64,000 nt of DNA from Alphaproteobacteria bacterium (GCA_033763575.1 JANRKF010000013.1:17396-81395); one strand, 5' to 3'; positions 38,389-64,000 are shown, numbered from the stretch's first letter. Notes: generated from the letters alone by a model not told the origin. Numbers and translations: made by a program.

Positions 38389-38805
38389 ATGAGCAACGAC
38401 AAACAAAACAACCAACAAAATTTCGACAATATTGATTTTATCCGGTTCCTGAATCGCATCATCCTGGAGGAGGCGTTCAAGATGATCACCGAGGGGCTGC
38501 CTTGCGATAACAAGATCACGCCCGGAAACCAGCAAGACGCCCAAAAAGCAAATGATCCAAAATGGTCGGTGGAGGAGCGTGAGCGCAACGCACAGCGCAA
38601 CATCCTTATTCATCGCCATATGCGTATGTGGGGCAAAGATAAACCCGCCACCGACACGCTGGGCGACATCGCCGATACCGAGCTTAAGATCGAGAAATAC
38701 CGTCCGTCGCAGCCGGAGCGCCAGCCGAATAAGCCGCCGCCGCTCGACGAGCGCGAGCGGGAACTTTTTCGCGAGCTGCTGCGCCGGGAGGATTACGATG
38801 CGTGA
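38389..38805 (+). CDS. hypothetical protein in the small-terminase (g1) position
   Basis: GGGAGG RBS 8 nt upstream of the ATG. An 8-nt overlap links it to the terminase gene. No motif recognised, so the call rests on position only. Confidence 0.5.
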   Translation: MSNDKQNNQQNFDNIDFIRFLNRIILEEAFKMITEGLPCDNKITPGNQQDAQKANDPKWSVEERERNAQRNILIHRHMRMWGKDKPATDTLGDIADTELKIEKYRPSQPERQPNKPPPLDERERELFRELLRREDYDA

Positions 38806-40246
38806 TTTTGATGAGGAGCTCGCCGCCGCGCTCGATGAAAAAACGCGGAAACATTTCAGGCATTTTATCGGAAGAACCCTGCTCACCGCCGATCCCGACG
38901 CGCATTTCCAGAAGAACTGGCATATCGATCTGATTGCCGAGCATCTGGAGGCGGCGCGTCTGGGCAAGCTCACAAGGCTCATCATCAACATGCCGCCGCG
39001 TGCGCTCAAAAGCCAGTGCGTGAGCATTGCGTGGCCGGCGTGGATTCTGGGGCATGATCCGAGTGCGCGCATCATGGCGGCGAGCTATTCGGCGCAACTC
39101 GCCATCCGCCATTCGCTCGATTGCCGTCAGGTGGTGACGAGCGCGTGGTATCAGCGTTTGTTTCCGGATACGCGGATCGCCCGCGACCAGAATGAAAAAC
39201 ATAAATTCATGACGACGCGGCGCGGCTTTCGCTTTGCCACCAGCGTCGGCGGCACGGCCACGGGCGAGGGTGGAAATTTCCTCATCATCGACGATCCGAT
39301 GAACCCGTCCCAGGCGATGAGCGCGGCGGCGCGGGCGCAGGTCAAGCGCTGGTACGACCATACGTTTTCCACGCGCCTCAACGATAAGAAGCGTGGGGTG
39401 ATCGTGCTGGTCATGCAGCGGCTGCATATGGACGACCTCACCGCGCACCTGCTGGAGAAGGGCGGATTCACTCTATTATCGCTGCCGGCGATCGCCACCG
39501 GAACGGATTATTTTCATTTCGGTAGCGTAACGAAAAATCGCGGGGAGAAAGAGGCGCTGCACCCGGCGCGGGAGGATACGGCGCTCATCGAACGGGCGAA
39601 GATCGAGCTGGGCGCGCAGGCGTTCTCGGCGCAATACCAGCAGCAGCCCTTGCCGGAGGAGGGCGGCATGCTGAAGCGCCCGTGGCTTCGCCGTCACAAT
39701 ATTCCCTCCCCCCTTGAGGGGGAGGGCAGGGTGGGGGGTGGTGAGGAAAGGCACCATGAGCGCATCGTGCAGAGCTGGGATACGGCGATCAAGGCCGAGA
39801 ACCATCACGATGCGAGCGTGTGCCTCACCTTTGTGGAAAGCGGCAACGTCGCGCATCTCATCGATGCGCGGGTCGAGCGGCTGGAATATCCGGAGTTGAA
39901 GCGGCGCGTGCGCGAGCTGGCGGAGAAATTCAAACCACATGCGATACTGGTGGAAGACAAGGCCAGCGGCCAGCAGCTTTTGCAGGATTTGAAGCGCGAA
40001 ACCTCGCTGCCGCTGGTGGCGGTGCAAAGCAGTGCGAACAAGGTCACGCGCTTTGCGGCGGTGTCGGCGATGATTGAAGCGGGGCGGCTGTCGCTGCCGC
40101 ATAACGCGCCGTGGCTGGCGGCCTTCGAGCAGGAGATTTTAGAGTTTCCGCACGGAAAACACGACGATCAGGTCGATGCGCTGACCCAATATCTCGATTT
40201 TCTGCGGAAATCTTCGTTCGATAGATTAAGCATGCGCCGCATTTAA
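38798..40246 (+). CDS. phage terminase large subunit
   Basis: WHIDLIAEHLE...RLIINMPPRALKSQ (deviant Walker A), FLIIDDPMNP (Walker B), and a C-terminal nuclease-like half (SWDTA...DASV...VEDKASG...HDDQVDA). Confidence 0.8.
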   Translation: MRDFDEELAAALDEKTRKHFRHFIGRTLLTADPDAHFQKNWHIDLIAEHLEAARLGKLTRLIINMPPRALKSQCVSIAWPAWILGHDPSARIMAASYSAQLAIRHSLDCRQVVTSAWYQRLFPDTRIARDQNEKHKFMTTRRGFRFATSVGGTATGEGGNFLIIDDPMNPSQAMSAAARAQVKRWYDHTFSTRLNDKKRGVIVLVMQRLHMDDLTAHLLEKGGFTLLSLPAIATGTDYFHFGSVTKNRGEKEALHPAREDTALIERAKIELGAQAFSAQYQQQPLPEEGGMLKRPWLRRHNIPSPLEGEGRVGGGEERHHERIVQSWDTAIKAENHHDASVCLTFVESGNVAHLIDARVERLEYPELKRRVRELAEKFKPHAILVEDKASGQQLLQDLKRETSLPLVAVQSSANKVTRFAAVSAMIEAGRLSLPHNAPWLAAFEQEILEFPHGKHDDQVDALTQYLDFLRKSSFDRLSMRRI

Positions 40247-40413
40247 ACGGCTCAATAGATTGATTTATAATGATTCAATGGCTTAAATTCGCGCCATTTC
40301 ATGTTTACCTATTATTAAATTCGCTGTGTTATTTTACTTAATAACGGCACAATAGTTAATAAGAAACGGACCGGCCGCAACGGGGCTAACATAAGAATAA
40401 AAGGTACAGGGTT

Positions 40414-40713
40414 ATGACAACAGATAATATCAACGAATGGGTGGACAAGGCCAAGCAATCCGAGGCCGATGATTCCTCCGCATCTTCGTCGGGCGGTGTG
40501 CGCGTCGTGCGCAACCAGCCGCAACATCAAAGCATCGGCAACATGATTATGGCGGTCGCCGATAAAATCCGCCCGCATATTGCCGCCATGTGCGATGGCG
40601 TGCGCAATAATGAAGGTATGCTCATTCAGCCTGCGCATATCCGTGGTATCGCGCTCGAAATGGCAGAGGGTCTGGTGAAAGACCATCAACGTAACAGTAA
40701 AAAATCAGCATAA
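40414..40713 (+). CDS. hypothetical protein
   Basis: 99-aa ORF in the insert between terminase and portal. No motif recognised. Confidence 0.4.
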   Translation: MTTDNINEWVDKAKQSEADDSSASSSGGVRVVRNQPQHQSIGNMIMAVADKIRPHIAAMCDGVRNNEGMLIQPAHIRGIALEMAEGLVKDHQRNSKKSA

Positions 40714-40725
40714 TAGGGAACGGCC

Positions 40726-40887: not shown

Positions 40888-40915
40888 AAAATACAAAAGT
40901 TTATTCCCAGAGGCG

Positions 40916-40947: not shown

Positions 40948-41029
40948 TGCGGGTGATGCGAACGCAGCGGATTTCACGAAAAAACGCATAAATAAATATT
41001 GCAATACAATCGCTTGTCATTTTTTTCAA

Positions 41030-41060
41030 AAAAAATGCATTTCCCCCCTTCCGTGACACA
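41030..41060 (+). promoter_or_regulatory. 31-bp element AAAAAATGCATTTCCCCCCTTCCGTGACACA, copy 2 (upstream of portal)
   Basis: Matches 38320-38350 apart from about three positions. It lies downstream of the terminator and 128 nt upstream of the portal start. Confidence 0.5.
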
Positions 41061-41188: not shown

Positions 41189-42391
41189 ATGAAACTTTTC
41201 CGCAAATCCACGACAAAAGCCGCTGCCAAAAAATCGCACCCATCTTATCTCGCGGGTAGTCTCATGCGTTCCTACATGGTGATGCCCGGCCAGCCGGTAT
41301 GGACGCCACGCGACTATTTTCAGTTTTCGCAGGAGGCCTATGCGAAGAACGTGGTGGCCTATCGTGCGATCGGCATGGTGGCGTCGGCGGCGGCGACGAT
41401 TCCCTACATCCTCTACCAGAAAAACCGCAACGGCAAGCGCGAGATCATGACGCATCCAGTGTTATCGCTGCTTTCGCGCCCGAACCCGACGCAGTCGTTC
41501 AATGATTTTCTGCAGGCGCTTTATCACTATAAAATGATTTCGGGAAATGCCTTCATACAGGCGGTGATGCCTTCCGGCGAGGCCCCGCGTGAGCTGTATC
41601 TCCTGCGGCCCGACCGCATGCAGATCATCGCCGGGAAAAATGCCATGCCTGCGGCGTATCGTTACACCGTGGATGAAAAAACCGCCGATTTTCCGGTGGA
41701 CCGCCTCACGGGCCGTTCGCGCATACTGCATCTCAAAACGTTCCATCCGACCAACGACTGGTATGGCCTCTCGCCCATCGAGGCGGCGGCCTACAGCATC
41801 GACCAGCATAACCAGGCGAGCACGTGGAACCAGTCGCTCATGCAGAATGGGGCGCGTCCTTCGGGGGCGCTGGTGGTGCGCGGGGAAAATGGCGGCGGCG
41901 TGCTTTCCGAGGAGCAATATAATCGCATGAAAATTCAGATCGACGAGCAGTTTTCCGGCAGCATCAATGCCGGGCGGCCGCTGTTGCTCGAAGGCGGGCT
42001 GGAGTGGAAAGAGATGAGCCTTTCGCCGAAAGACATGGATTTCATCGCCAGCAAAAATGCCAGTGCGCGGGATATTGCGCTGGCGTTCGGCGTGCCGCCG
42101 CAGCTGCTCGGCATTCCCGGCGACAGCACCTATAATAATTTGCAGGAGGCGCGGGTGTCGCTCTGGGAGCAGACGATATTGCCGCTTGCGGCCAGCACCG
42201 CCGAGTCGCTCAACCACTGGCTGCTGCCGCTGTTCGGCGAGGGGCTGGAGCTGGTGCCGAATACCGATGACATTTTGCCGCTCGCCATCCGCAACCAGGC
42301 GATCTGGGACCGCGTCGAAAAAGCATCCTTCCTCACCGACGATGAAAAACGCGCCGCCGTCGGCTATCCGCCCGCCAATCCTCGGGCGTGA
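41189..42391 (+). CDS. phage portal protein, HK97 family (RcGTA g3 homologue)
   Basis: 400 aa. WTPRDY..F..EAY.KN..V...I......A...P....Q..., NGKREIMTHPVLSLLSRPNP and WNQSLMQNGARPSGAL are typical of HK97-type portals. Confidence 0.9.
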   Translation: MKLFRKSTTKAAAKKSHPSYLAGSLMRSYMVMPGQPVWTPRDYFQFSQEAYAKNVVAYRAIGMVASAAATIPYILYQKNRNGKREIMTHPVLSLLSRPNPTQSFNDFLQALYHYKMISGNAFIQAVMPSGEAPRELYLLRPDRMQIIAGKNAMPAAYRYTVDEKTADFPVDRLTGRSRILHLKTFHPTNDWYGLSPIEAAAYSIDQHNQASTWNQSLMQNGARPSGALVVRGENGGGVLSEEQYNRMKIQIDEQFSGSINAGRPLLLEGGLEWKEMSLSPKDMDFIASKNASARDIALAFGVPPQLLGIPGDSTYNNLQEARVSLWEQTILPLAASTAESLNHWLLPLFGEGLELVPNTDDILPLAIRNQAIWDRVEKASFLTDDEKRAAVGYPPANPRA

Positions 42392-42482: not shown

Positions 42483-43022
42483 ATGGCCCTCAAAAACACT
42501 TCCGATTCTTTCGGCTGGCTAGCGAAGTTGTTTCACTGGCTGATTGCGGCGTGCATCATTACGCTGTGGATCGTTGGCAGCCTGATGGGCGATATGGAAA
42601 ATTCACCCACTAAATTCCAGATTTATTTCCTGCATAAATCCACCGGCATCATGGTGCTGGCGCTGGCGGTTCTGGCATTTACGTGGCGTGCGGCCAATAA
42701 AAAACCGGGTTTGCCTCCGCATGTCGGCAAAGCGCAAAAAGCGGCGGCGAGCGCGGTGAAATATGGGCTGTATCTCTGCATGATCTTGATGCCGATGAGC
42801 GGCTGGGTGATGAGCTCGGCGGCGGGATACCCCGTATCGGTATATGGGTTGTTCACGCTGCCCGATCTGGTGGCGCCCGACAAAGCGCTGGCGGAGAGCA
42901 TGAAAGAGCGTCACGAAGCGACCGGCAACATCCTCCTCGTGCTGTTCTGCCTGCATGCGGGTGCGGCCCTGCTGCACCATTTCTACCATAAGGACGGCGT
43001 CCTGAGAAGGATGTTGCCTTAA
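42483..43022 (+). CDS. cytochrome b561 family protein
   Basis: Four TM helices with conserved His ligands (KLFHWLIA, YFLHKSTG, HEATGNIL, LHHFY), the CybB-like layout. Confidence 0.8.
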   Translation: MALKNTSDSFGWLAKLFHWLIAACIITLWIVGSLMGDMENSPTKFQIYFLHKSTGIMVLALAVLAFTWRAANKKPGLPPHVGKAQKAAASAVKYGLYLCMILMPMSGWVMSSAAGYPVSVYGLFTLPDLVAPDKALAESMKERHEATGNILLVLFCLHAGAALLHHFYHKDGVLRRMLP

Positions 43023-43142
43023 TCCCCGCATTTATTGCGGGGTCCGGTCATCACCGATGTTTCGGTGAGTGGACCTTACAAAAATTCCCTACCCCCTGTT
43101 CGGAATAACCAACTACCAGACCCCGCAACAAGTGCGGGGATA
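43021..43142. repeat. REP cluster: AATCCCCGCATTTATTGCGGGGTC, a central hairpin, and the inverted copy GACCCCGCAACAAGTGCGGGGAT
   Basis: Hairpins at 43021-43044 and 43119-43142 in opposite orientation, with TCACCGA-TGTT-TCGGTGA in between. Confidence 0.75.
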
Positions 43143-43159
43143 ATCACGAGGAACTACCA

Positions 43160-43735
43160 ATGACCTACAAAAAGATTAGCGCTTCCATGCGGGAGCGCAA
43201 ACGAATGGCGTTTGCCTTACAGGTAAAATCCATGGGCGCCGACGGCCGTTTCGCGGGCTATGCCAGCGTGTTCGACATCGTTGATAACCAGAAGGATATC
43301 ATCATGAAGGGCGCGTTCGCAGGAGCGCTTAAAAACGGCCCCGGCGCGATCAAGCTGCTATGGCAACATCAGCAGGACGAGCCGATTGGCATCTTCGACC
43401 ATATTTTCGAGGACGCGTTCGGGCTGTATGTCGAGGGGCGGTTGCTGCTCGATGTGCAACAGGCGAGGGAGGCGCACGCGCTGCTCAAGGCGGGTGCGGT
43501 TTCGGGCCTCTCCATTGGCTATTCGCCGGTGCGCTACCGTATCGACGGGGATACCGGGGTACGGTATCTGGCGGCGGTCGATCTCTTTGAGATCAGCCTC
43601 GTCACCTTTCCCGCCAACGACGCCGCGAAAGTGACGGTGGTGAAGGGCACTCCCTCCCCCCTCAATGGGGGAGGAACAGAGATGATCGCCCTGCAAGACG
43701 CTCTCGACAAGGCCATCTTGACGTTGCGTTTTTAA
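43160..43735 (+). CDS. HK97-family prohead protease (RcGTA g4 homologue)
   Basis: FAGYASVFDIVDNQKDIIMKGAF...LLWQHQQDEPIG...GLSIGY...EISLVTFPAN. GAGGAA RBS. Confidence 0.9.
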   Translation: MTYKKISASMRERKRMAFALQVKSMGADGRFAGYASVFDIVDNQKDIIMKGAFAGALKNGPGAIKLLWQHQQDEPIGIFDHIFEDAFGLYVEGRLLLDVQQAREAHALLKAGAVSGLSIGYSPVRYRIDGDTGVRYLAAVDLFEISLVTFPANDAAKVTVVKGTPSPLNGGGTEMIALQDALDKAILTLRF

Positions 43736-43780: not shown

Positions 43781-44002
43781 ATGGAAACGTTATCCTTTCA
43801 GGCACCGGCGGCGATGAAGAAAAAGCTGGAGCGTTTTGCCGGCCAGCTTGATCGCAGCAAGGGCTACCTTATCCGCGAGGCGCTCGCCGACTACCTGGAA
43901 GATCTGGAGGATTATGTAGCGGTCATGCGCGACCGGAAATCGCATGATCCGAAGCGGAATCTTTCGCTTGCGGCGGTCAAACGCAAATACAAGCTTAAAT
44001 AA
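43781..44002 (+). CDS. ribbon-helix-helix antitoxin (RelB/ParD/CopG-like)
   Basis: LSFQAPAAMKKKLERFAGQLDRSKGYLIREALADYLEDLED is an RHH fold signature. It shares 1 nt with the toxin start (TAATG). Confidence 0.75.
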   Translation: METLSFQAPAAMKKKLERFAGQLDRSKGYLIREALADYLEDLEDYVAVMRDRKSHDPKRNLSLAAVKRKYKLK

Positions 44003-44265
44003 TGGCGTGGCAGGTTGAGTTTACGGCAAAGGCGGACAAGCAGTTCGCCAAGCTCGACCGGCACACGCAGCAAGCCATCGTGAAGTATCTTGAACGCGTC
44101 ATCGAGAGTGACGACCCCACATTATTCGGTAAAGCGCTGGTCGGTGAATTTTCCGGCCTGTGGCGTTACCGCGTGGGCAAATACCGCATCATCTGCGACC
44201 TTCAGCAACAACGGCTGATTGTCGAGGTGGTACGCATCGGTAAACGCAACAGCGTTTACGATTAA
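44002..44265 (+). CDS. relE: RelE/StbE-family mRNA interferase toxin
   Basis: WQVEFTAKADKQFAKLD...LWRYRVGKYRIICDLQQQRLIVEVVRIGKR is typical of RelE/ParE-superfamily toxins. Confidence 0.85.
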   Translation: MAWQVEFTAKADKQFAKLDRHTQQAIVKYLERVIESDDPTLFGKALVGEFSGLWRYRVGKYRIICDLQQQRLIVEVVRIGKRNSVYD

Positions 44266-44448: not shown

Positions 44449-45645
44449 ATGACTATTTCTGAAATCACTGAACGCGTCTCGCACCTGGGACATGCATGGG
44501 AAGAATTCAAGCATGTGAACGATGCGCGCCTGCGTGAGATCGAGACCAAAGGCTCTGCCGACGGCCTCTATAACGAGCACCTGAACAATATCAGCCGTGC
44601 GCTCGACAACTACAAATCGCGTCTCGACACCATCGAGACGGCCTATGCGCGTCCGGAACTGGGCGCCGAGCTGGAAACCAAACATACCCATGCCGGGTAT
44701 AGCGAATACAGCAAGGCCTTCCGCAATTACCTGCGTAAAGGCATGGATGCGGGTTTAGAGCAGCTTTCGACCAAGACACTTTCGGTCGGTTCCGATCCCG
44801 ATGGCGGTTACCTGGTGACGCCGACCATGAGCGGCAAGATCGTGAAATCGGTGTATGAAACTTCGCCGATGCGCCAGGTCGCTTCGGTGGAAACCATCAC
44901 CTCCGATTCGCTGGAACTGATCGACGACCACGACCAGGCCTCGGCGGGGTGGACTTCGGAAACCGGCGCCATTTCGGAAACCAATACGCCGCAAATCGCC
45001 AAGCGCAACATCCCGACCCATGAACTTTATGCACAGCCGAAGGCGACGCAGAAGCTGGTAGACGATGCCGCGATCGATATCGAAGCATGGCTTGCCGATA
45101 AAATTTCCGACATCTTCGCCCGCAAGGAAAATACGTCCTTCATCAGCGGCAACGGTTCGGGCCAGCCACGCGGTATCCTCACCTACGCGGCGGGCACCGA
45201 CTGGAACCAGATCGAGCAGATCGATTCCGGCACCAGCGGATCGGTCACTGCCGACGGCCTCATCAAAGTATTTTATGCGCTGAAAGATGCCTATACCCGC
45301 AACGCCAGCTTCATGATGAACCGGGCGACCGTGCAGGCGGTGCGTCTCCTGAAAGAGGCGACCACCAACCAATATCTGTGGCAGCCGGGCCTTGCGGCCG
45401 GTGCGCCGGATACCCTCATGGGGGTACCGGTGATGATGGCGTCCGACATGCCGACGGCGGCGGCGGATTCGCTTTCGGTCGCGGTGGGTGATTTCAAGGC
45501 GGCGTACCAGATTGTTGATCGCCGTGGCATCAGCATCCTGCGCGATCCGTTCACAGAAAAACCGTTCGTGAAATTCTACGCCACCAAGCGCGTCGGCGGC
45601 GATGTCATCAATTTTGAAGCCATCAAGCTGTTGAAGCTTGCTTAA
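44449..45645 (+). CDS. HK97-family major capsid protein (RcGTA g5 homologue)
   Basis: N-terminal delta-like coiled region, then GSDPDGGYLV, SGNGSGQPRGIL, QYLWQPGL..G.PDTLMGVPV and GISILRDPFT. Confidence 0.92.
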   Translation: MTISEITERVSHLGHAWEEFKHVNDARLREIETKGSADGLYNEHLNNISRALDNYKSRLDTIETAYARPELGAELETKHTHAGYSEYSKAFRNYLRKGMDAGLEQLSTKTLSVGSDPDGGYLVTPTMSGKIVKSVYETSPMRQVASVETITSDSLELIDDHDQASAGWTSETGAISETNTPQIAKRNIPTHELYAQPKATQKLVDDAAIDIEAWLADKISDIFARKENTSFISGNGSGQPRGILTYAAGTDWNQIEQIDSGTSGSVTADGLIKVFYALKDAYTRNASFMMNRATVQAVRLLKEATTNQYLWQPGLAAGAPDTLMGVPVMMASDMPTAAADSLSVAVGDFKAAYQIVDRRGISILRDPFTEKPFVKFYATKRVGGDVINFEAIKLLKLA

Positions 45646-45648
45646 CCT

Positions 45649-46148: not shown

Positions 46149-46272
46149 TTTACATCCCCGGCAAGCCGAAGGCGCGACCGGGGATCTTGTGGTCGCCACA
46201 CATCGTAGCTTCTACAGGATCCCCGCCTTCGCGGGGATAAACTAGGAATATGACATTCTTCCCATACATGCT

Positions 46273-47046: not shown

Positions 47047-47099
47047 TCTTAACAATTTTTTAGTTATTAGAAAATCGAGAAAGGGACAGGAATGATGCC

Positions 47100-48092: not shown

Positions 48093-48100
48093 AAAACGGG

Positions 48101-48136
48101 CTGCGCGGCACGCCTGCCTATGCCCCGGTGAACTAG
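48101..48136 (+). repeat. 36-bp direct repeat, right copy (CTGCGCGGCACGCCTGCCTATGCCCCGGTGAACTAG)
   Basis: Begins 8 nt after the TcmP-like stop. It has one mismatch to the left copy. Confidence 0.9.
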
Positions 48137-54791: not shown

Positions 54792-54793
54792 TC

Positions 54794-56011: not shown

Positions 56012-56084
56012 GGCTGTCACATAATCTTAATACAAAACCCATGTAACCCCTTGCCCGGATAGGCTATATTTAAAGGGTGGAGAA

Positions 56085-57629
56085 GTGTGGATTATGGTAG
56101 GATCACCAAAGATAAGACCGATGAAGCCTGTAAATCGATTGGATTCGATCGGGGAGACGGTGGCCGAGGCGCGCCCGGATACGCTTGTCCGCAAAGCTGG
56201 GCAGGCTTCGGAAAAAGCCCAGGACTGGATGGAAAAATACCTGTATCGTCCGGGCCAGAAAAAAGCGCCCGCACCTGCAATCGAAACGCCACCCGCACCG
56301 GCGGCAAAATCCAAATCATCGTCATACTCATCGGGATATTCACGCAGCGACGAATTTGCCCCCGTTGCATCCCCGGCAAAACCGGCAGGCGAAGGAGAGA
56401 TCGATCCGGCTTATCTGGTGGCGGGTGCGGCGGCGGCGGGTCTGGGCGCGGCGGCATTGCGCCCGCGCTCGGATGAAAAACATAAACCCACGGAGCTGGA
56501 AGCGCTCGGCAACACCGTCATCGGCGGGTTGGATGCGGCGGCGGGCACACTCGGCAGCGTCACCGGCATGACCGGCATGGTGCTGGGCCTCGGCGGGCAG
56601 ATGGTTGTTCCGACATTGGCGGGTGGCCTGGGGCTGGTGGGAGCGAAGGGCGCATCAAGAACCATCATGAAGCCGCTGGATTACCTGAACGAAACCACCG
56701 TGGAAGCCTTCGCGGCCAAACATATTCCCACCCATATCAGCGCGAATGTCAGCAAGGCCTCGAATACGCTGGCCGGGGTGGCGTCCGTGCCGCTGGGCAC
56801 GATGTCGAAACTGCCGCTGCTCGGTTCGCTCAAAGCGGAAAATATCAAATCGCTGCCCACGCAAATCAAGCAATCCTCGCTGATGCATGCAACGCTCAGC
56901 AGCTCCTTCATCGCCATGGGCGGGCTGCAGATGTATGGCGTCGCCCGCGAATTCTCCGGCATGGTACAGGCGATGGAAGAGCTGGAACACGATCTCACCG
57001 GCAAGAAAGTGTCGGCGGCGGGCGTGCTGCTTGGCAATGTCTCCAAGCCGGTGGCGGCCCTTCGCACGCAGTTGCTGCAAACCGACGGCACGCACATGCT
57101 GGCGGCGATGGCCAATCTCGGTATCAACATCGCCATGGCCTTTTCCAACCGCCTGGGGTTCATGTCGAGTATGTTGATGTTCCAGGCACCGGAACTCATC
57201 AACACCGTGGCGGAAGGCGTCTTCGGGCATTCGCCGCTGCCTGTCTATTCCGGCCTGCGCGCCGCCTACAACGCCGGGCAGGAGATTCCGGCGGAAGCGT
57301 ACGCCGAATTCCTGCTGCTTTCCAGCAAGGAGCTGCGCGATCATGGTTCCCGCGGCAAACGCATGGCTTCGGAGATCGCCAAGGAATATGCCGGGCAGCA
57401 TGTATCTCCGGCGGAAGTGCTGCGGAAAGTCTATAACGGCGAGATGAAAGCGCGGATGGAGGCGATCGTCGACAGCCAGCCTCAAGTTTCGCACGTCGAT
57501 CGCCTGAAAAATAAAGCGCGCACGGTGGCGGCGGAAAAATTTCCGCAGCCGGTGGGCAACTTCACCAGCCGCCTGCATGAACAGGCGCAGCTGGCGGAGA
57601 TGACGCCGCCTTCGCCATCACTCAATTAA
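56085..57629 (+). CDS. orphan protein C (514 aa) with glycine-zipper hydrophobic core
   Basis: Non-ATG track start (an ATG at 56121 is also possible). It contains GGLDAAAGTLGSVTGMTGMVLGLGGQMVVPTLAGGLGLVGAKG. Confidence 0.6.
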   Translation: MWIMVGSPKIRPMKPVNRLDSIGETVAEARPDTLVRKAGQASEKAQDWMEKYLYRPGQKKAPAPAIETPPAPAAKSKSSSYSSGYSRSDEFAPVASPAKPAGEGEIDPAYLVAGAAAAGLGAAALRPRSDEKHKPTELEALGNTVIGGLDAAAGTLGSVTGMTGMVLGLGGQMVVPTLAGGLGLVGAKGASRTIMKPLDYLNETTVEAFAAKHIPTHISANVSKASNTLAGVASVPLGTMSKLPLLGSLKAENIKSLPTQIKQSSLMHATLSSSFIAMGGLQMYGVAREFSGMVQAMEELEHDLTGKKVSAAGVLLGNVSKPVAALRTQLLQTDGTHMLAAMANLGINIAMAFSNRLGFMSSMLMFQAPELINTVAEGVFGHSPLPVYSGLRAAYNAGQEIPAEAYAEFLLLSSKELRDHGSRGKRMASEIAKEYAGQHVSPAEVLRKVYNGEMKARMEAIVDSQPQVSHVDRLKNKARTVAAEKFPQPVGNFTSRLHEQAQLAEMTPPSPSLN

Positions 57630-57644
57630 CGGGAAGACCGGATT

Positions 57645-58583
57645 GTGAACGATAAAAAACAAGAGATGCAGGATAGGGGACTGACCGGGCTTGGCACCGA
57701 TAACGAGGTGCTGGCCGCGCAGCTTGCCACCAATACGCTGGGCCATATGGCCGCGCCCGCCGGACTTGCGGTGGATCTCTATGCGGCGGATGTCGAGCTG
57801 CACCGGAATATCCAGGCGGCCACCAGCATGATGGGCGAGGATACGCGGACGCTGAAAGCCGGAAGCCCCGCCTTCCGCAAATATATCAAAGAGGAATTGC
57901 CGGAAGTCTATGGCGACCGCGCCATGGGTTTTGTCGCGGCCATCACCGGCGGTGCGGTAGCGCTTGGCCTCGCCGGTATGGTCTTCGGCCTGCCCGGTGG
58001 ATTCCTGGGGATGCTGGCCGGACTCACCATTGGCGCGGTCGGTTCGATCGGCGGGAATTATATCAAGAACCAGTTTTTTCCCAGCGACTATAATACATTC
58101 CTCGATTTTGCCGCCAACCTGCAAAATCTCGGACAGCAGAAACAAATGACGCCGGAAACGGCGTTCGTGGCGCTGGTGATGAATATGCCGGATGAGCGTT
58201 CACGAAAAGACGTGATGGCGACATTGCCGAAACGCCTGCGCGTCAAAAATGAAAAAGACCTGATCCGCCTGCTGGCCAGCGACGAAGGGCGGGAGGCGCT
58301 GCGCATGGCCATGGTGGAGAACGACGCGGCCCTGCGGGCGGGTGTGGGCGCGCTCAGCACCTCGCCGCAGGTCACCATTTCCGAACAGTTCGCACAGCTC
58401 GTCAACCAGCAGCAGGTCGCCGGGGTGGATTTGCTCAATGGCGAAAAAACCGGGCATATCGGCATGCTGATCGCCAACCACGAGACGATGCAATTCCAGC
58501 AATCGCAGGAACCGCAGGACATGGCGCAAGCCAATCCGAATACCCATCTTCCCACGCCCAAAGCAAACCAGCTCGGCGTTTAA
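57645..58583 (+). CDS. orphan protein D (312 aa) with glycine-zipper TM hairpin
   Basis: GTG start 15 nt after C. It contains GFVAAITGGAVALGLAGMVFGLPGGFLGMLAGLTIGAVGSIGG. Confidence 0.6.
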   Translation: MNDKKQEMQDRGLTGLGTDNEVLAAQLATNTLGHMAAPAGLAVDLYAADVELHRNIQAATSMMGEDTRTLKAGSPAFRKYIKEELPEVYGDRAMGFVAAITGGAVALGLAGMVFGLPGGFLGMLAGLTIGAVGSIGGNYIKNQFFPSDYNTFLDFAANLQNLGQQKQMTPETAFVALVMNMPDERSRKDVMATLPKRLRVKNEKDLIRLLASDEGREALRMAMVENDAALRAGVGALSTSPQVTISEQFAQLVNQQQVAGVDLLNGEKTGHIGMLIANHETMQFQQSQEPQDMAQANPNTHLPTPKANQLGV

Positions 58584-58652: not shown

Positions 58653-59252
58653 ATGGCGTTTATCGAAACACGCTTTCCTACGGACATATCTTTTGGTTCC
58701 GCAGGCGGGCCGGAATATTCCACCGACATCATCATTACCCAGGGGGGGTATGAGCAGCGCAACATCAACTGGGCAGCGGCGCGGGCGCGTTACAACGTCG
58801 CCTACGGCGTCCGCACGCAGGAGCAGCTCGATGCGCTGATCGCCTTCTTCCGCGCCCGCAAAGGCCGGGCCGACGGTTTCCGCTTCAAGGACTGGACGGA
58901 TTACCAGGCGACCGGGCAGCTGATCGGCACGGGCGACGGCAGCACCACCCAGTTCCAGCTGGTGAAAAACTATACGAGCGGCAGCATCACCGATAGCCGC
59001 ACCGTTACCAAGCCGGTCTCGGGCAGCGCGTCCATATACCTCGCCGGGGTATTGCAGACAACCGGCTATTCGCTTTCCACCACCACCGGCATCGTCACCT
59101 TCAGCAGCGCCCCCGCAGGCGGCGTCGCCATTACCGCCACCTTCGATTTCGACGTGCCGGTGCGCTTCGATACCGACCGGCTCTCCGCCTCGCTCGACAG
59201 CTACGGCCTTTCCAGCATCAGCGACATTCCGCTGGTGGAAGTGAGGGTGTGA
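58653..59252 (+). CDS. DUF2460 distal-tail protein (RcGTA g12 homologue)
   Basis: MAFIETRFPTDISFGSAGGPEYSTDIIITQGGYEQRNINW...GFRFKDWTDY is the typical N-terminus of the family. Confidence 0.88.
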   Translation: MAFIETRFPTDISFGSAGGPEYSTDIIITQGGYEQRNINWAAARARYNVAYGVRTQEQLDALIAFFRARKGRADGFRFKDWTDYQATGQLIGTGDGSTTQFQLVKNYTSGSITDSRTVTKPVSGSASIYLAGVLQTTGYSLSTTTGIVTFSSAPAGGVAITATFDFDVPVRFDTDRLSASLDSYGLSSISDIPLVEVRV

Positions 59253-59391
59253 TACATCAAACCATTGAATATGATAATATAAATAGATATATTTGGTTAA
59301 GATATATCTATTATTTAATATTTATAATGATTTTGCCATTGTAAGAAAATAGTTGTATTATATAAACATTACTGATAGTAGGAGTACCCTT

Positions 59392-59664
59392 ATGGCTACA
59401 AAGAATCCTAAGCAAGAAGCTGTCGATAGCAATTATGAGGCGTTTAAGCGCCTTTTACCTGCGATTATCGGTGTTCACGCTAATCAATACGCACTCATGC
59501 GGAATGGAGATGTAGTAGAGTATTTTGACACGGCAAAAGATGCTTTCTCAGCGGGAAGTAAAATTTTTGAAGATGGCTTGTTTTCCGTTCAGAAGGTGAC
59601 TGATTCAATCTCTGATCTGGGTTATTATTCGCATGCCATGCCTAACTGGTGTACTCAACAATAG
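59392..59664 (+). CDS. small protein, DUF5678-like partner of the aspartic protease
   Basis: AGGAG RBS. HANQYALMRNGDVVEYFDTAKDAFSAG...FSVQKV resembles the small proteins I recall upstream of bacterial retropepsin-like genes. Confidence 0.45.
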   Translation: MATKNPKQEAVDSNYEAFKRLLPAIIGVHANQYALMRNGDVVEYFDTAKDAFSAGSKIFEDGLFSVQKVTDSISDLGYYSHAMPNWCTQQ

Positions 59665-60031
59665 TTTACAAGCCATTATCGATGTTGCAGTAGCTCCCAC
59701 TAGTGGACAGGCTCATGCGAAGCTGCAAAATTTCCGAGCGCTGATTGATACGGGAGCGAATCGTACTTGTATTACTGCGCATGTCGTTCAAGCATTATCA
59801 TTAAGTCCGATAGGTAAATTGCCGATGCGTTCTGCTAGCCATACCATTGACACCAATATTTATATGGTGGACTTGGGATTACCATTTGGCGGTATAATGC
59901 GCCTTGATAAAGGCAAGGAGGTGATGGAATGTTGTGATAATAGCGAATTTGAAATTATTATAGGCATGGACATTATTTCTCAGGGAACGTTGACCGTATC
60001 TCCTGATAATCGTTTTATTTTCTGCCTTTAA
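59633..60031 (+). CDS. retropepsin-like (clan AA) aspartic protease
   Basis: Catalytic ALIDTGANRTCI (D-T-G-A) and the flap/dimer motif IIIGMDIISQG. 132 aa and strongly AT-rich. Confidence 0.7.
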   Translation: MPCLTGVLNNSLQAIIDVAVAPTSGQAHAKLQNFRALIDTGANRTCITAHVVQALSLSPIGKLPMRSASHTIDTNIYMVDLGLPFGGIMRLDKGKEVMECCDNSEFEIIIGMDIISQGTLTVSPDNRFIFCL

Positions 60032-60086
60032 AATCACAATTCATACCTCATCACACAATGAGCTCCTGCTTTCGCGAGAAAATTCT

Positions 60087-60137
60087 ATGAAAACCATCTC
60101 CTCCCCACTCGCCGCGCATATCGCGAACCAAGATTAG
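60087..60137 (+). pseudogene. decayed duplicate of the g13 5' end (MKTISSPLAAHIANQD*)
   Basis: CTATGAAAACCATCTCC...CATATCGCG parallels the true g13 start at 60232-60275 (MKTISNELSQHIAGE). Confidence 0.65.
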
Positions 60138-60138
60138 C

Positions 60139-60216
60139 GTCATTCCCGCGCAGGCGGGGATCTCTTTCACCACTTGAGCGAAGGGGCAGGGGGATTCCCG
60201 CCTTCGCGGGAATGAC
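60139..60216. repeat. 78-bp MITE-like palindromic element (GTCATTCCCGCG...CGCGGGAATGAC)
   Basis: The termini are complementary, with internal CCCGC/GCGGG hairpins. It belongs to the same family as 30590-30665 and a degenerate copy near 33675-33740. Confidence 0.75.
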
Positions 60217-60233
60217 ACAAAAAGGACAACCCT

Positions 60234-61100
60234 ATGAAAACCATCTCCAATGAACTCAGCCAGCATATCGCGGGTGAGGTGACGACGCTTGCCACCTGCT
60301 GGAAGCTCACCCGCCGCGATGCGACCGTCATGGGCTTCACCGACCACGACCGCGACATCGCCTATGAATCGCTTACCTACAAGGCCGCCACCGGGTTTTC
60401 GCCGAGTGCGGTGGCGAATTCGGCCAATCTGCAGGTCGATAACCTCGATGTCGAGGGCATGCTCGCGGCGGAGAGTATTTTAGAGGCCGATATACTGGCC
60501 GGGCTCTACGACTTCGCGGAAATCGAAATTTTCCAGATCAACACCGCCGATACCGCGCAGGGCATCCTCAAAATGCGGCGCGGCTGGCTCGGTGAAGTAT
60601 CGCTCACCCGCCAGCATTTCGTGGCCGAGGTGAGGGGGCTTTCGCAGTTGCTCTCGCAGGATATCGGCGAATATTTCTCGCCCTCCTGCCGCGCCGCGCT
60701 GGGCGATTCGCGCTGCAAGGTAAGCCTGGGCTCCCACACCGTGACCGGCACGGTCACCTCAGGCGCCTCGCGTCTCGGCTTCACCGATAGCTCGCGCAGC
60801 GAAACCAGCGCCATTTTCACCGGCGGGAAAATCACCTTCACCTCAGGGGCGAATGATGGCATTTCGATCGAGGTGAAGGAATATATTTACCGCGCTGGCA
60901 CCGGCGGCATCCTAAGCTTCGTGCTGCCGCTGCCCTACAGTCTCGCCGCCAGCGACAGCTATTCGCTCGTCAAGGGCTGCGACAAGACCATCGGCACCTG
61001 TTTTTTGCGCTTCAACAATGTGGCGAATTTCCGTGGCGAACCGCATGTTCCGGGCGTCGACCGCATGCTGGAGACGGCGGGCACACGCTCGGAATGGTAA
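60234..61100 (+). CDS. DUF2163 / BR0599-domain tail hub protein (RcGTA g13 homologue)
   Basis: LATCWKLTRRDATVMGFTDHDRDI...YKAATGFS...NLDVEG, then the C-terminal CDKT...C..RFNN..NFRGEPHVPG. Confidence 0.88.
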   Translation: MKTISNELSQHIAGEVTTLATCWKLTRRDATVMGFTDHDRDIAYESLTYKAATGFSPSAVANSANLQVDNLDVEGMLAAESILEADILAGLYDFAEIEIFQINTADTAQGILKMRRGWLGEVSLTRQHFVAEVRGLSQLLSQDIGEYFSPSCRAALGDSRCKVSLGSHTVTGTVTSGASRLGFTDSSRSETSAIFTGGKITFTSGANDGISIEVKEYIYRAGTGGILSFVLPLPYSLAASDSYSLVKGCDKTIGTCFLRFNNVANFRGEPHVPGVDRMLETAGTRSEW

Positions 61101-61138: not shown

Positions 61139-61321
61139 ATGCAGATCATGCGTAACTTTACCCATGGTATTTTCACGGTGCTACGGCTGACCGGCGCGCC
61201 GCTATTATACCGCTATCCCCACCGCAATTCAGGCGAAGCGTTGCGCGGCGACTGGCTCAAAATCGCCGGCGACATTGAAAGCGTGATGGGAAAACTGAAG
61301 GACGAACGCCATGGCGGATGA
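61139..61321 (+). CDS. small hypothetical protein
   Basis: 60-aa ORF whose end overlaps the DUF2335 start by 11 nt. Coding status is uncertain. Confidence 0.3.
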   Translation: MQIMRNFTHGIFTVLRLTGAPLLYRYPHRNSGEALRGDWLKIAGDIESVMGKLKDERHGG

Positions 61322-61802
61322 GCCGAATTACACCGACAAGCCCTATAAAACCGGCGGATACCGGGACCCGAAGGCGGCGGGCCGCGAGCGCGTGCAGAAC
61401 CGCACGGTCGAAATCCTGCCGCATCCGGAGGTGCTGGAGAGTTATAATTACGTGGTCGAGGGCTCGGCGAAAATGATCCTCGGCATGTTTGAAAACGAGC
61501 AGAAACACCGCCATGAGTGGGAGCTGCTGGCGTTGCAAATTCATAAATTCTCGTCGATGCTGGGGCAGACGCTGGGGTTCCTGATCGCGGTCGCGGTGTT
61601 CGTCTCCGCCACCTTCATCGGGATTTACGGCAACACCACCATCGCCGCTTTTATCTGGGTGTTCGGCATGTCGATCATCGTGATGGCGGGATTGGTATGG
61701 TCGTATGCAAAATCCATGGGGCAGCGCCCACTTTTCGCAAGGCCCGCCATGCGCACCCATTTCCGGCCGGAAAAAAATCAGGGAGAACCCGCGGCGGAGT
61801 GA
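61311..61802 (+). CDS. DUF2335 membrane protein
   Basis: LPHPEVLESYNYVVEGSAKMILGMFENEQKHRHEWE followed by two TM helices matches the DUF2335 pattern. Confidence 0.6.
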   Translation: MADEPNYTDKPYKTGGYRDPKAAGRERVQNRTVEILPHPEVLESYNYVVEGSAKMILGMFENEQKHRHEWELLALQIHKFSSMLGQTLGFLIAVAVFVSATFIGIYGNTTIAAFIWVFGMSIIVMAGLVWSYAKSMGQRPLFARPAMRTHFRPEKNQGEPAAE

Positions 61803-62387
61803 TTATCTCGGAGGTGGTGGTAGGTCGCCCCCAACGTTTTTCCAGGATCCAACTACTTTATGCATCACCTCCATCGGAATATAGAGTATTTGCTTATCGG
61901 AAGGAACCCGAATAATTTCTGATGCGGGAATAGTTGAAAATAATCTGCTATTGTCCCTCGATGCAGGCACCAGAAATTCACCTTTACCGTCATCTGTATA
62001 GCGCTCAATCATTGTAGCGTCATGATTTGTTAGCTTACGAATCTCACTTCCCAGCAATGCTTCCACCATATCGGAACCATTCGGCACCAATCTGTCAATC
62101 GTAGCAAAACTTAAGGCAACCCTATCGGCATCCGCTGCCTGCACTTGCTCGGTTTGTTCTGTAGTAAAACCCATTTTACCCTCAAGAAAATCAACAGGAT
62201 CAACAGTTTTAGGCAAAAAGACTAAATACTTTGTTTTCCCTGCCGATAAAACGGGGGGAGCCACAAATATCTGGTTTTTTTCTATCCCTCCATCATTGCG
62301 GGCTTTTTTTCTGAATTTATCTGCTGTCTCGGTTAGCGAAACCTTTTGAACAGCGGGTTTTTGATCATCTGCCATTTTTTTCTCCAT
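61803..62387 (-). CDS. hypothetical protein (AT-rich, antisense to GTA genes)
   Basis: 194-aa ORF whose stop abuts the DUF2335 stop. No motif recognised. Confidence 0.45.
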   Translation of the reverse strand: MEKKMADDQKPAVQKVSLTETADKFRKKARNDGGIEKNQIFVAPPVLSAGKTKYLVFLPKTVDPVDFLEGKMGFTTEQTEQVQAADADRVALSFATIDRLVPNGSDMVEALLGSEIRKLTNHDATMIERYTDDGKGEFLVPASRDNSRLFSTIPASEIIRVPSDKQILYIPMEVMHKVVGSWKNVGGDLPPPPR

Positions 62388-62455
62388 ATCTCTGAGCCTG
62401 AATCACGCAAGAAAATTTTATTTAATCGTACTCCAAAAGTCAAACATCTATCTTT

Positions 62456-62938
62456 ATGTTAACCCAACAAAAACACATCATCGCCTGTGCGCGGAGCTAT
62501 ATCGGCACGCGCTTTTCCCATCAGGGCAGGCTCAAAAAAACCGGCAGCCACAAGGGCGGCATCGATTGCCTGGGGCTGCTGGTGTGCGTGGCGGCAGAGC
62601 TTGATCTACGTGGGAAAAACGGCAAGCCGTTCGCCGCGTTCGACGAGCGCGGCTATTCCCACCAGCCGGATACGGACGCATTGCGGCAGCGCTTTGAAAT
62701 GCTTCTCATACCGATACCCATCACGGGTATCAAACCCGCCGACATCGCGCTTTTCACCATCGACGGGGCGCCGCAGCATATGGGTATCCTTGCTTCACCA
62801 CCAACCAGCAACCATCAACGACCAACCAATCTGATCCACGCCTATGCCCCGGCACGCGCCGTGGTCGAACATACCCTCGACGGGTATTGGCAGGAAAAAA
62901 TGACGGCGGCGTTCCGCCTTCCACATATTCACCCCTAA
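62456..62938 (+). CDS. NlpC/P60-family peptidase (RcGTA g14 homologue)
   Basis: ARSYIGTRFSHQGR...GIDCLGLLV (catalytic Cys), then HMGIL (His) and IHAY. Confidence 0.85.
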   Translation: MLTQQKHIIACARSYIGTRFSHQGRLKKTGSHKGGIDCLGLLVCVAAELDLRGKNGKPFAAFDERGYSHQPDTDALRQRFEMLLIPIPITGIKPADIALFTIDGAPQHMGILASPPTSNHQRPTNLIHAYAPARAVVEHTLDGYWQEKMTAAFRLPHIHP

Positions 62939-62953
62939 CCGGACATTATCATC

Positions 62954-64000
62954 ATGGCATCTATTCTTCTAAGCGCGGCGGGCACTGCCGTCGGCGCATC
63001 CACCGGCACGCCGTTTGGCGCGGCACTCGGGCGGCTGGTCGGCCGCACCGCAGGCAGCCTCATCGACAGCAAATTATTCGGCGGCAGCACCAAATTCAGT
63101 GTGCGCGGCTCGCGGCTCGCTGATCTCGCCGTGCAAAGCTCCGCCTACGGGAAAATGATCCCGATCGTCTATGGCAGCGTGCGCCTCGGCGGCAATATCA
63201 TCTGGTCGCAACCGATCCGGGAGACCGCCTCCACCAGCACCAGCTCGGCGGGCGGAGGCGGCAAGGGCGGCGGCGGGCGCGTATCGCAGAGCACCACCAG
63301 CTACAGCTATTCGGTGACGCTCGCGGTTGCCATTTGCGAGGGCGAAATCGACGAAATCCACCGCATCTGGGCCGATGCCAAGCAGCTCGACCTTTCGCAA
63401 TATACCACCCGCAGGTATATGGGCAGCGAAACGCAGGATGCCGATTCGCTGATCGCTTCCATCGAAGGCGCCGATAAAACCCCGGCCTATCGCGGCATGG
63501 CCTATGTCGTGTTCGAGGATTTCCCACTTTCGGATTTCGGCAACCGCATTCCGAATTTCACTTTCGAGATCAGGAAAAAATCGCTCGCGCCGGATTATAA
63601 CGGCGACACGCTGGAAAATGAAATCACCGGCATGGTGATGATTCCGGGCGCCGGGGAATTCGTCTATGACACGCAGGTCGACACGAAAATTTCCGGAGCG
63701 GAAGTGGACGGCCAGTGGGTGCAGCAAGGCAACCAGATGAAAATCAACATGCATAACCCCACGGGCGCGGCCAATGCGCTGCTCGCGCTCGACCAACTGC
63801 AGGCGACCTGCCCGAATATCGAATGGGTATCGGTGGTGGCAAGCTGGTTCGGCGATACCATGGACGCCGGCACCTGCCTCATTACCCCCGGCGTGGAATT
63901 TCAGGCGGATGCGATCATTTCGCCTGCGGAATGGTCGGTCGCGGGATTCACGAGGAGCACCGCCCGCCTCATCACCCAGATAGACGGCGCGCCCCAATAT
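62954..64000 (+). CDS. GTA host-specificity / TIM-barrel-like tail protein (RcGTA g15 homologue), 3'-truncated by window edge
   Basis: Hand-translated as MASILLSAAGTAVGASTGTPFGAALGRLVGR...GSRLADLAVQSSAYGKMIPIVYGSVRLGGNIIWS...YSYSVTLAVAICEGEIDEIHRIWADAK...YRGMAYVVFEDFPLSDFGNRIPNFTFEI. The frame stays open to position 64000. It is absent from the ORF track, presumably because there is no stop codon. Confidence 0.88.
   Translation, partial: MASILLSAAGTAVGASTGTPFGAALGRLVGRTAGSLIDSKLFGGSTKFSVRGSRLADLAVQSSAYGKMIPIVYGSVRLGGNIIWSQPIRETASTSTSSAGGGGKGGGGRVSQSTTSYSYSVTLAVAICEGEIDEIHRIWADAKQLDLSQYTTRRYMGSETQDADSLIASIEGADKTPAYRGMAYVVFEDFPLSDFGNRIPNFTFEIRKKSLAPDYNGDTLENEITGMVMIPGAGEFVYDTQVDTKISGAEVDGQWVQQGNQMKINMHNPTGAANALLALDQLQATCPNIEWVSVVASWFGDTMDAGTCLITPGVEFQADAIISPAEWSVAGFTRSTARLITQIDGAPQY

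Follow-up and report, generated by a model that had tools for sequence, protein, structure and literature searches.

A probably vertically inherited RcGTA-type gene cluster with old accessory genes, recent cargo and lost tail tube genes

We analysed a 64,000-nt stretch of DNA from an Alphaproteobacteria bacterium (GCA_033763575.1 JANRKF010000013.1:17396-81395), which we call the window and whose positions we count from its first nucleotide. From 38.3 to 64 kb, the window carries head and tail genes like those of RcGTA, the gene transfer agent (GTA) of Rhodobacter capsulatus. We conclude, with a probability of roughly 0.7, that this region is a chromosomal, vertically inherited RcGTA-type head-tail cluster in which old accessory genes, recent cargo and the loss of tail genes are combined. 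Its architecture is common to more than 30 species represented by metagenome-assembled genomes (MAGs), indicating vertical inheritance.

Results

The core genes are intact and lie in ordinary chromosome

We gathered 118 loci (numbered with an L below) around homologues of the capsid gene, of the accessory gene o48356 (from GTDB species genomes), of the tail gene g12 (from metagenomes) and around one homologue of a 312-aa accessory protein. The assemblies came from NCBI, JGI, ENA and Logan, all of them of uncultured organisms and either MAGs or metagenome contigs, and synteny tables were built with tblastn and jackhmmer. The capsid protein has thousands of relatives, the best of them 89% identical and all from metagenomes or MAGs; close relatives that carry a name are MAGs called Rickettsiales, Alphaproteobacteria or Pseudomonadota bacterium. 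When clustered at 90% identity, the proteins of the window are all singletons, and exact-match searches with its capsid, g12, g13 and g14 had no hit. The head gene g7 is too divergent to serve as a search query: used as the sole query, it gave no match in a contig scan, and a word-index search returned just the window's own protein.

An earlier reading of the window (the original prediction) had placed eleven RcGTA-type core genes here, in a cluster expanded beyond 25 kb by blocks of other genes. Open reading frame (ORF) listing, translation and family scans recovered all eleven at their predicted positions, intact, with extra genes in between and in an order co-linear with RcGTA g1-g15. Preceded by an ORF at the g1 position, they are as follows.

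38389..38805, + strand: small protein at the g1 position, directly 5' of terL and overlapping its start; candidate small terminase
38798..40246, + strand: large terminase, g2 (terL); Terminase_6C, 7e-21; 47-72% identity to relatives
41189..42391, + strand: portal, g3; Phage_portal, 5e-88; 53-82% identity, 25 loci
43160..43735, + strand: prohead protease, g4; Peptidase_S78, 2e-31; 51-77% identity, 28 loci
44449..45645, + strand: HK97-type major capsid, g5; Phage_capsid, 5e-88; pN 0.09
49821..50366, + strand: g6 head-tail adaptor; Phage_connect_1, 4e-8
50363..50692, + strand: g7 head completion protein or stopper; Phage_HCP, 2e-24
51154..51558, + strand: g8 tail terminator; Tail_completion_gp17, 4e-26; RcGTA chain Rcc01690, 2e-8
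58653..59252, + strand: g12 distal tail protein; DUF2460, 2e-76; RcGTA chain Rcc01695, 2.9e-55; pN 0.08-0.13
60234..61100, + strand: g13 baseplate hub; Phage_phiJL001_Gp84_N, 6e-58; Phage_BR0599, 1e-23; 83% identity in L118
62456..62938, + strand: g14 cell-wall peptidase-like tail protein; sub-threshold NlpC_P60; phrog_329 minor tail protein, 1.5e-7; 28-57% identity, 35 loci
62954..64000, continuing past the window end, + strand: g15 'megatron' host-attachment protein, N-terminal 348 aa; phrog_4271, 1.5e-101

The g1-position protein evolves fast; family scans gave no match for it, and its sole detectable homologue, 35% identical, stands at the equivalent position in L004. The g6-g7 junction is tight in 36 loci. 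The L118 orthologue of g15 (82% identity) carries the domains GTA_TIM, Phage-tail_3 and Rcc01698_C. From g1 to the window end, with g15 incomplete, the cluster measures 25.6 kb, about twice the canonical size, so that the predicted expansion stands. In a tally of gene coordinates over this stretch, core genes (GC ~0.57-0.62) occupy ~36%, clade-conserved genes ~41%, and recent cargo, counted as three blocks found in the window only plus a toxin-antitoxin (TA) pair, ~16%.

A malonyl-CoA decarboxylase gene adjoins the cluster on its 5' side, and the upstream genes also include those for a class II aminoacyl-tRNA synthetase, UvrA and an MFS transporter. Scans against Pfam, PHROG and NCBIfam found no integrase, repressor, replication, lysis or lysogeny gene among the ORFs of 38-64 kb or the main ORFs of the 38 kb upstream. 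The surroundings of the cluster are ordinary chromosome.

Using Nei-Gojobori counts, we compared nonsynonymous (pN) and synonymous (pS) differences between the window and four relatives. Across the genes tested, pS was 0.53-0.86, which is near saturation. pN was 0.08-0.15 for capsid, g12, o48356 and the gene that follows capsid (postcap), 0.11-0.30 for g6 to g8, 0.18-0.34 for the accessory genes cytochrome b561 (pS 0.54-0.63) and o50665m, and 0.30-0.47, still below pS, for four big accessory proteins. Frameshifts or relaxed selection had been named beforehand as features that would betray a pseudogenised relic. Compared with relatives, the core ORFs have their full length and align throughout, with no frameshift, premature stop or relaxed selection, and their pN (0.08-0.29, against pS of 0.53 or more) lies far below pS, a comparison that is qualitative. 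The lesions seen in the core set are a clean deletion of g9-g10.1 and an in-frame insertion of 13 aa in TerL, with no others. The core genes are not decaying, and core and accessory genes alike are under purifying selection.

Most of the extra genes are old and fixed in the clade

The extra genes had been described as insertions in almost every gap between core genes. Extra genes are present as described, but those that make up seven blocks out of eleven, and some of those in one further block, are conserved in the clade and old. In 13 to 35 relatives, which are species-level MAGs with capsid identities of 61-89%, about 15 accessory genes keep their position and orientation, and the pN of these genes is far below pS. 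For these reasons, most of the extra genes are an old, fixed part of the clade's cluster.

40414..40713, + strand: o40414, 99 aa, between terL and portal; same position in 13-14 loci, 38-53% identity; no match in family scans
42483..43022, + strand: cytochrome b561-family membrane protein, between portal and protease; Ni_hydr_CYTB, 8e-33; same position in 15 loci, 44-76% identity
45732..46148, + strand: post-capsid protein (postcap); phrog_5707, a PHROG without assigned function, 7e-24; 21-24 loci
48383..48751, + strand: o48356, highly conserved small acidic protein, a signature gene of the clade, after postcap; 34-37 loci, 59-85% identity; pN 0.08-0.14
48880..49752, - strand: o48880, fast-evolving partner of o48356; directly after o48356 in 34 loci (jackhmmer)
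50665..51120, - strand: o50665m, antisense gene between g7 and g8; - strand in all of 14-18 loci, 29-69% identity; no match in family scans
51560..52144, - strand: o51560m, antisense gene after g8 or after g9-g10; - strand in all of 21-24 loci
52186..52533, + strand: o52186, 115 aa; conserved C-terminal motif S.GQ..A..A..I.R...R.L
52647..58583, + strand: four big, helical, fast-evolving proteins (714, 405, 514 and 312 aa) 5' of g12; families in 24, 9-12, 32 and 35 loci
61139..61802, + strand: o61139 (60 aa) and an overlapping DUF2335 membrane protein with two transmembrane segments, between g13 and g14; DUF2335, 4e-12; phrog_3996, 6e-18; 23-25 loci

Three junctions, capsid-postcap, o50665m-g8 and o61139-DUF2335, are tight in all genomes, and the last has a median spacing of -5 nt, an overlap; the DUF2335 protein is 92% identical in L118. 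As predicted, several genes of the window lie on the opposite strand (48880-49752, 50665-51120, 51560-52144 and 61803-62387). The first of these, o48880, is on the + strand in most loci and inverted to the - strand in the window, L004, L005 and L007. o51560m combines an N-terminal membrane anchor (one transmembrane-like segment, residues 8-26) with a coiled coil. o52186 has the same position in L001, L004, L005 and L007, while L014, L038 and several further loci have likely counterparts.

The block at 45735-46148 had been counted as non-GTA. It encodes postcap, which is a phage-type protein by its phrog_5707 match, also occurs in the otherwise compact L070 and always has the capsid gene within 164 nt. 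Like the cementing protein of phage BPP-1 (PDB 3J4U chain H), postcap has ~140 aa and follows an HK97-fold capsid gene directly; the similarity of its profile to 3j4u_H (E=0.044 over 45 residues) is below significance. As a lead only, it is plausible that postcap is a candidate head cement or decoration protein.

The four big proteins contain Gly-rich hydrophobic segments, and g12 lies directly downstream of the 312-aa family in every case. Profile searches of all four against Pfam, PHROG, NCBIfam, PADLOC and PDB gave noise at most. The homologue search for the 312-aa protein gave seven proteins, so that the alignment behind its AlphaFold2 (AF2) model was of limited depth; the model is confident for residues 150-288 only, and Foldseek returned no match below E=2. 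With the model only partly confident and Foldseek without a match, we dropped an alpha-pore-forming toxin (YaxA, E=0.3) as a candidate identity for this protein. Paralogy among the big proteins is likewise unsupported (BLASTP E 0.07-0.1, hhalign probability 2%). The 714-aa protein has a His-rich C-terminus (..HGHAHKHKHP..; window 54600-54790). The sole ORF between g9 and g12 in L070 (9513-9971) also has a His-rich C-terminus and no significant similarity to the 714-aa protein.

Accessory genes were also found apart from the core set. L026 (1-10961) carries o48356, o48880, o51560m, a 672-like and a 405-like protein, o61139 and DUF2335 in the usual order, and clade hidden Markov models (HMMs) detected no core GTA gene in it. 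In L025 and L028, the o48356/o48880 pair occurs by itself.

The tail tube and chaperone genes are deleted in the window's subclade

In RcGTA-type clusters of the clade, g8 can be followed by g9, which encodes the tail tube, and by the chaperone genes g10 and g10.1. L070 has a textbook g9 after g8; starting from it as the query, we found g9 in ~21, g10 in ~11 and g10.1 in six loci. Clade HMMs for g9 and g10 had no match in the whole 64-kb window, and the six loci in which tblastn detected g10.1 do not include it. Neither the g9 HMM nor tblastn searches for g9, g10 and g10.1 gave a match in L001, L004, L005 and L007. In these four loci and the window g8 abuts o51560m, and the five form one subclade in a rough neighbour-joining (NJ) tree of the capsid. 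Thus, g9, g10 and g10.1 have been cleanly deleted in the window's subclade. A second tube-less subclade (L015, L019 and L020) is parted from the first by g9-bearing lineages on the same tree, which suggests that g9-g10.1 were lost at least twice.

L014 (11384-13084) and L038 (4683-7373) carry g9, g10 and g10.1 after g8 together with all four big-protein families and are the complete form of the clade's cluster. This co-occurrence with g9 and g10 rules out the big proteins as replacements for the tube or the chaperones.

No tape-measure protein was recognised in the window by Pfam, PHROG, NCBIfam and PDB profile searches, with o52186, the 514-aa and the 312-aa proteins considered as candidates; a match of the 514-aa protein to phrog_305 (E=0.0055) is at noise level. 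In L014 and L038, o52186 is the first + strand gene past g10/g10.1, with only antisense o51560m between. By its place, o52186 may occupy the expected tape-measure position, an unproven assignment; PDB and family searches with o52186 found no match. The earlier gene list for the window already had no g9, g10, g10.1 or g11, and their absence went unremarked.

A few junctions take up small mobile cargo

The remaining extra genes are recent. AT-rich blocks had been predicted and are present at 46273-48092 (GC 0.40-0.45), 59353-60031 (GC 0.40-0.42) and 61803-62387 (GC 0.43); among the loci compared, all three are found in the window alone.

43781..44265, + strand: RelB-like antitoxin and ParE/RelE-family toxin, in the protease-capsid junction; RHH_1, 8e-7; ParE_toxin, 1e-11
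46149..48136, + strand: mobile cassette with REP hairpins, a DUF5131 gene, a TcmP gene and a 36-nt duplicate of the postcap 3' end; absent from all relatives
46273-47046, + strand: DUF5131 three-Cys protein; DUF5131, 5e-106; PADLOC PDC-M30B, 1e-111
47100-48092, + strand: TcmP partner; TIGR04474, 1.5e-51 (175.9 bits against a cut-off of 53); PADLOC PDC-M30A, 2e-18
59253..60233, + strand: insertion in the g12-g13 junction, with two ORFs in an AT-rich block, a relic of the g13 5' end and a REP hairpin pair
59392-59664, + strand: orphan 91-aa ORF in the AT-rich block of the g12-g13 junction
59633-60031, + strand: clan AA aspartic protease-like ORF; Asp_protease_2, 7e-7
61803..62387, - strand: o61803m, window-specific antisense ORF in the DUF2335-g14 junction; GC 0.43

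The TA genes (43781-44002 and 44002-44265) overlap by 1 nt with the antitoxin first, a type II arrangement. NCBIfam gives RelB-like at 3e-11 (43.4 bits, below the 50-bit cut-off) and RelE/StbE at 2e-8, and L007 is the only relative with the RelB/ParE pair. The TcmP/DUF5131 pair is a match to the PADLOC candidate defence system PDC-M30, by profile similarity of both adjacent components. o61803m has no homologue in any locus compared. The proposal that the cluster holds cargo is borne out by the TA pair and the candidate defence pair.

Duplicated gene ends, also predicted, mark these insertions. The last 36 nt of postcap (46113-46148) recur at 48101-48136 with 97% identity, and a 48-nt relic of the g13 start (60078-60125, 75% identity) lies 147 nt before the real one. 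The insertions thus duplicate gene ends, and the neighbouring core reading frames stay whole.

L118 is close to the window (g12 87%, g13 83% and DUF2335 92% identical), and its cargo is different.

L118 3743-4849, antisense: 368-aa gene between g12 and g13, different from the window's cargo
L118 7393-9456, strand not stated: 687-aa autotransporter gene between DUF2335 and g14, different from the window's cargo
L118 9989-10399, antisense: 136-aa gene between g14 and g15, a junction that is without cargo in the window

Since L118 holds different cargo at these three downstream junctions, the junctions are real hotspots. More than 400 extra bp were present at protease-capsid in 10 of 29 loci, at g12-g13 (median gap 6 nt in 72 loci) in 15 of 72, and at g14-g15 in 8 of 31. 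The cargo-accepting junctions are protease-capsid, postcap-o48356, g12-g13, DUF2335-g14 and g14-g15. The original prediction of an integration hotspot therefore applies to particular junctions and not to the cluster as a whole.

Hairpins, a palindrome in TerL and a promoter-like element

The REP elements of the original prediction were recovered as a REP-like hairpin, ATCCCCGC-N7-GCGGGGTC, with four copies against 0.07 expected and three of them inside the cluster.

43020..43141, no strand assigned: two REP-like hairpins in opposite orientations, between cytochrome b561 and protease; ATCCCCGC-N7-GCGGGGTC
45648-45680: third REP-like hairpin, after the capsid gene; ATCCCCGC-N7-GCGGGGTC

Further hairpins lie at 46150-46245 and 60134-60221. 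At 39701-39739, just before the nuclease-domain motif QSWDTA, TerL contains an in-frame insertion of 13 aa, IPSPLEGEGRVGG, which derives from a perfect GC palindrome, CCCTCCCCC-N5-GGGGGAGGG. The palindrome is unique in the window (0 expected), and the insertion is absent from 14 relatives. In-frame palindromic elements occur in Rickettsia genes, and the TerL insertion is reminiscent of them.

A 36-nt direct repeat, TGCAT..TTACCCCCTTCCGTGACA with TAAATA ~20 nt later, stands upstream of two core genes.

38315..38350, + strand: promoter-like element, copy 1, ~40 nt upstream of g1
41025..41060, + strand: promoter-like element, copy 2, ~130 nt upstream of the portal gene

Its exact 16-mer core occurs at these two sites of the window only, and L004 (capsid 83% identical) has the element at the two matching places, near 4821 and near 7475. 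Scanning with generic sigma-70 and terminator models did no better than on shuffled sequence, so the operon structure is read from the conserved motif only. From this motif we infer a shared promoter or activator site, a candidate site for a GTA regulator, that would serve at least two transcription units.

Discussion

A working cluster or something else

In the reading that we favour, a vertically inherited RcGTA-type cluster, the accessory set was fixed in the clade ancestor and kept since then in place and orientation under purifying selection. A few junctions repeatedly take small mobile cargo, here RelB/ParE, TcmP/DUF5131, an Asp-protease-like pair and one orphan ORF, and the window's subclade has lost the g9 tube and the g10 and g10.1 chaperones. 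What the cluster does is deduced from its sequence throughout. It is probably still expressed, as at least two units sharing the promoter-like element 5' of g1 and of portal, and its product may be a DNA-packaging HK97-type head with neck proteins. Because the distal tail genes g12-g15 are retained, the tube might be supplied from elsewhere in the genome, or the particle might be stubby and tube-less. The old accessory genes, many of them for membrane proteins, would act alongside the particle and would not be passive cargo.

Several points weigh against this reading. The tube and chaperones are missing in cis and there is no credible tape measure, so a working tailed particle is unproven; the search for g9-g11 covered the 64-kb window of a 176-kb contig. 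The 13-aa insertion could impair packaging by TerL. The L026 accessory set without core genes fits an independent function equally with a GTA-linked one. Synonymous sites are saturated, which makes dN/dS qualitative only, and the placement of the MAGs in Rickettsiales or Alphaproteobacteria follows submitters' labels that are unverified.

The finding in L026, along with the solitary o48356/o48880 pair in L025 and L028, is what one would expect if the conserved extras were ordinary chromosomal genes, trapped beside GTA genes and kept there only since rearrangements seldom happen or would break up the GTA operon; besides, both cytochrome b561 and DUF2335 are generic membrane proteins. We consider this explanation unlikely, given that the extras keep position and orientation in 13-35 species-level genomes while cargo at neighbouring junctions turns over, that capsid-postcap, o50665m-g8 and o61139-DUF2335 (median -5 nt) are tight or overlapping, and that postcap has phage homologues. 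A decaying relic, meaning a dead GTA or prophage remnant that acts as a landing pad for mobile DNA and whose integrity is transient, strikes us as improbable. The intact, constrained core genes speak against this part of the original prediction, which is echoed by the loss of g9, g10 and g10.1 and by the palindromic in-frame TerL insertion; the unrecognised tape measure, the REP hairpins, the three to four recent AT-rich inserts and the widespread variability of junctions could be counted on the same side. Yet each of the eleven other core ORFs has its full length and can be aligned with relatives from one end to the other, pN stays far below pS despite saturated synonymous sites, and the insertions duplicate gene ends and do not truncate genes. 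The tube-less arrangement itself is shared by five genomes, including the window, whose capsids are only ~83-86% identical and whose remaining genes are intact.

Every core gene has phage homologues, and prophages typically carry morons, TA pairs and defence genes, so an active or recently active temperate phage with morons has to be weighed. It is very improbable: the cluster and the 38 kb upstream lack integrase, repressor, replication and lysis modules, the closest att-like repeat, located at tRNA-Ser, encloses another island at 5-16 kb, the genes follow the RcGTA order g1-g15 with RcGTA-specific g12-g15, and the architecture has been kept over deep divergence with the tube gene missing. 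That the contig is an assembly or binning artefact, a chimera of GTA fragments and unrelated DNA, is hardly credible, since the interleaved order recurs in more than 30 independent assemblies and the blocks specific to the window have duplicated gene ends and hairpins at their borders, as real insertions would; this holds even though the relatives are all MAGs or metagenome contigs and the AT-rich blocks differ in composition. An artefact had been named at the outset as one way in which the predicted expansion could fail, and it fails on the same recurrence of the architecture.

A bolder proposal goes beyond the vertically inherited cluster and is speculative, with the odds well against it: the accessory genes might be working parts of a remodelled GTA-derived machine, in which the tube would thereby be dispensable, with o48356 as a particle-associated factor whose domain is shared with STAND proteins. 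Such a machine would couple an HK97-type head and an RcGTA distal tail to cytochrome b561, the o51560m anchor, the four big proteins and DUF2335. If this were true, the clade would hold natural intermediates from a tailed GTA to the tube-less GTAs of Rickettsiales and Holosporaceae.

Relation to known systems

RcGTA itself (g1-g15, ~15 kb; PDB 6TBA, 6TEH) has the same order of g1, terL, portal, protease, capsid, g6-g8 and g12-g15; the window's g12 and g8 match RcGTA chains, and both clusters are without phage replication and lysogeny genes. In contrast to RcGTA, the window cluster is ~2x longer and has ~15 extra clade-conserved genes, lacks g9, g10 and g10.1, which other clade members have, and has no recognisable g11. 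RcGTA has one operon promoter, whereas the window has at least two promoter-like elements.

Rickettsiales and Holosporaceae keep GTA heads, and Rickettsiales also keep their distal tail, the hub and the megatron, with the tube undetectable (George et al. 2022, PMC9254644). The retained genes are under purifying selection (PMC9254644), and a stubby tube-less particle has already been proposed for these GTAs. The window resembles these reduced GTAs in that head, portal, neck, distal tail, hub and megatron are kept under purifying selection while tube and tape measure are undetectable. It differs from them in being a single co-linear locus with at least 11 RcGTA homologues, not scattered small clusters, and in its GC of 55-60% with no sign of genome reduction. 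Sister lineages of the window keep g9, g10 and g10.1, which makes the loss datable within the clade.

GTAs are one of the major routes by which Alphaproteobacteria exchange genes. An open question is what makes host-associated lineages retain GTA heads and distal tails when the tube is absent (PMC9254644). The clade studied here holds a full series at one syntenic locus, from complete (L014, L038) through tube-less (the window and four relatives, and the second subclade) to accessory-only (L026); therefore, the order and the consequences of tail loss are open to comparative study. Our findings also indicate that a GTA cluster can absorb stable non-viral genes, antisense ones included, and still host TA and defence-type cargo, and GTA detection tools should expect this wider content. 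We found no description of a conserved accessory set, or of cytochrome b561, in GTA clusters in our literature searches.

Large clusters, defined by at least nine RcGTA homologues with regions merged if fewer than 15 ORFs apart, have been found in five orders only (Shakya et al. 2017, PMC5721377). The window has 11 RcGTA homologues and the g1-position ORF in one region and so counts as a large cluster under that definition. Should the label 'Rickettsiales' be correct, this large cluster would lie outside the five orders of Shakya 'Clade 1' and bear on the timing of the origin of RcGTA-like elements (PMC5721377).

In the cargo-bearing junctions, the window and its relatives recall another known pattern. 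Hotspots of P2/P4-type prophages and satellites, like phage morons, place cargo or defence genes at fixed junctions. Likewise, the window and its relatives hold different small AT-rich cargo, bounded by short repeats, at the same junctions. The host element of the window is, unlike those hotspots, no mobile phage but a non-replicating GTA-type cluster. Cargo is unable to spread along with such an element and therefore has to arrive by recombination into the chromosome. Both PDC-M30 genes are adjacent in the window, in the order B then A, inside the GTA cluster. To our knowledge, the defence activity of PDC-M30 has not been established.

A shared domain in STAND-type proteins and other observations

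o48356 gave a sub-threshold KTSC match, and a fold search with its single-sequence AF2 model (pLDDT 66) was without a match. Its family comprises 451 cluster representatives, and in many of these the domain is the C-terminal part of large STAND/NLR-like proteins with NACHT or NB-ARC combined with CHAT, DUF4062, HEAT or TPR. Among P0132-P0176, the domain in such proteins is 51-68% identical to o48356; in P0139 (1075 aa), the last 85 residues are 66% identical. STAND proteins could have taken over the domain, at the sensor position, from a particle-associated protein; conversely, o48356 could be a free-standing mimic of their domain. The fusion of the o48356 domain to STAND NTPases offers a separate lead on how bacterial immune sensors may recognise virus-like particles.

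Far upstream of the cluster, two partial copies of the 5' half of the tRNA-Ser gene (4911-5000) stand before that gene, within 4764-5000, and a 93% identical copy of its 3' 58 nt is found at 15920-15977. Between these repeats lie ~11 kb with genes for an AbiEii-WYL protein and for one that is PD-(D/E)XK/RNase H-like, and this stretch is probably an integrated island.

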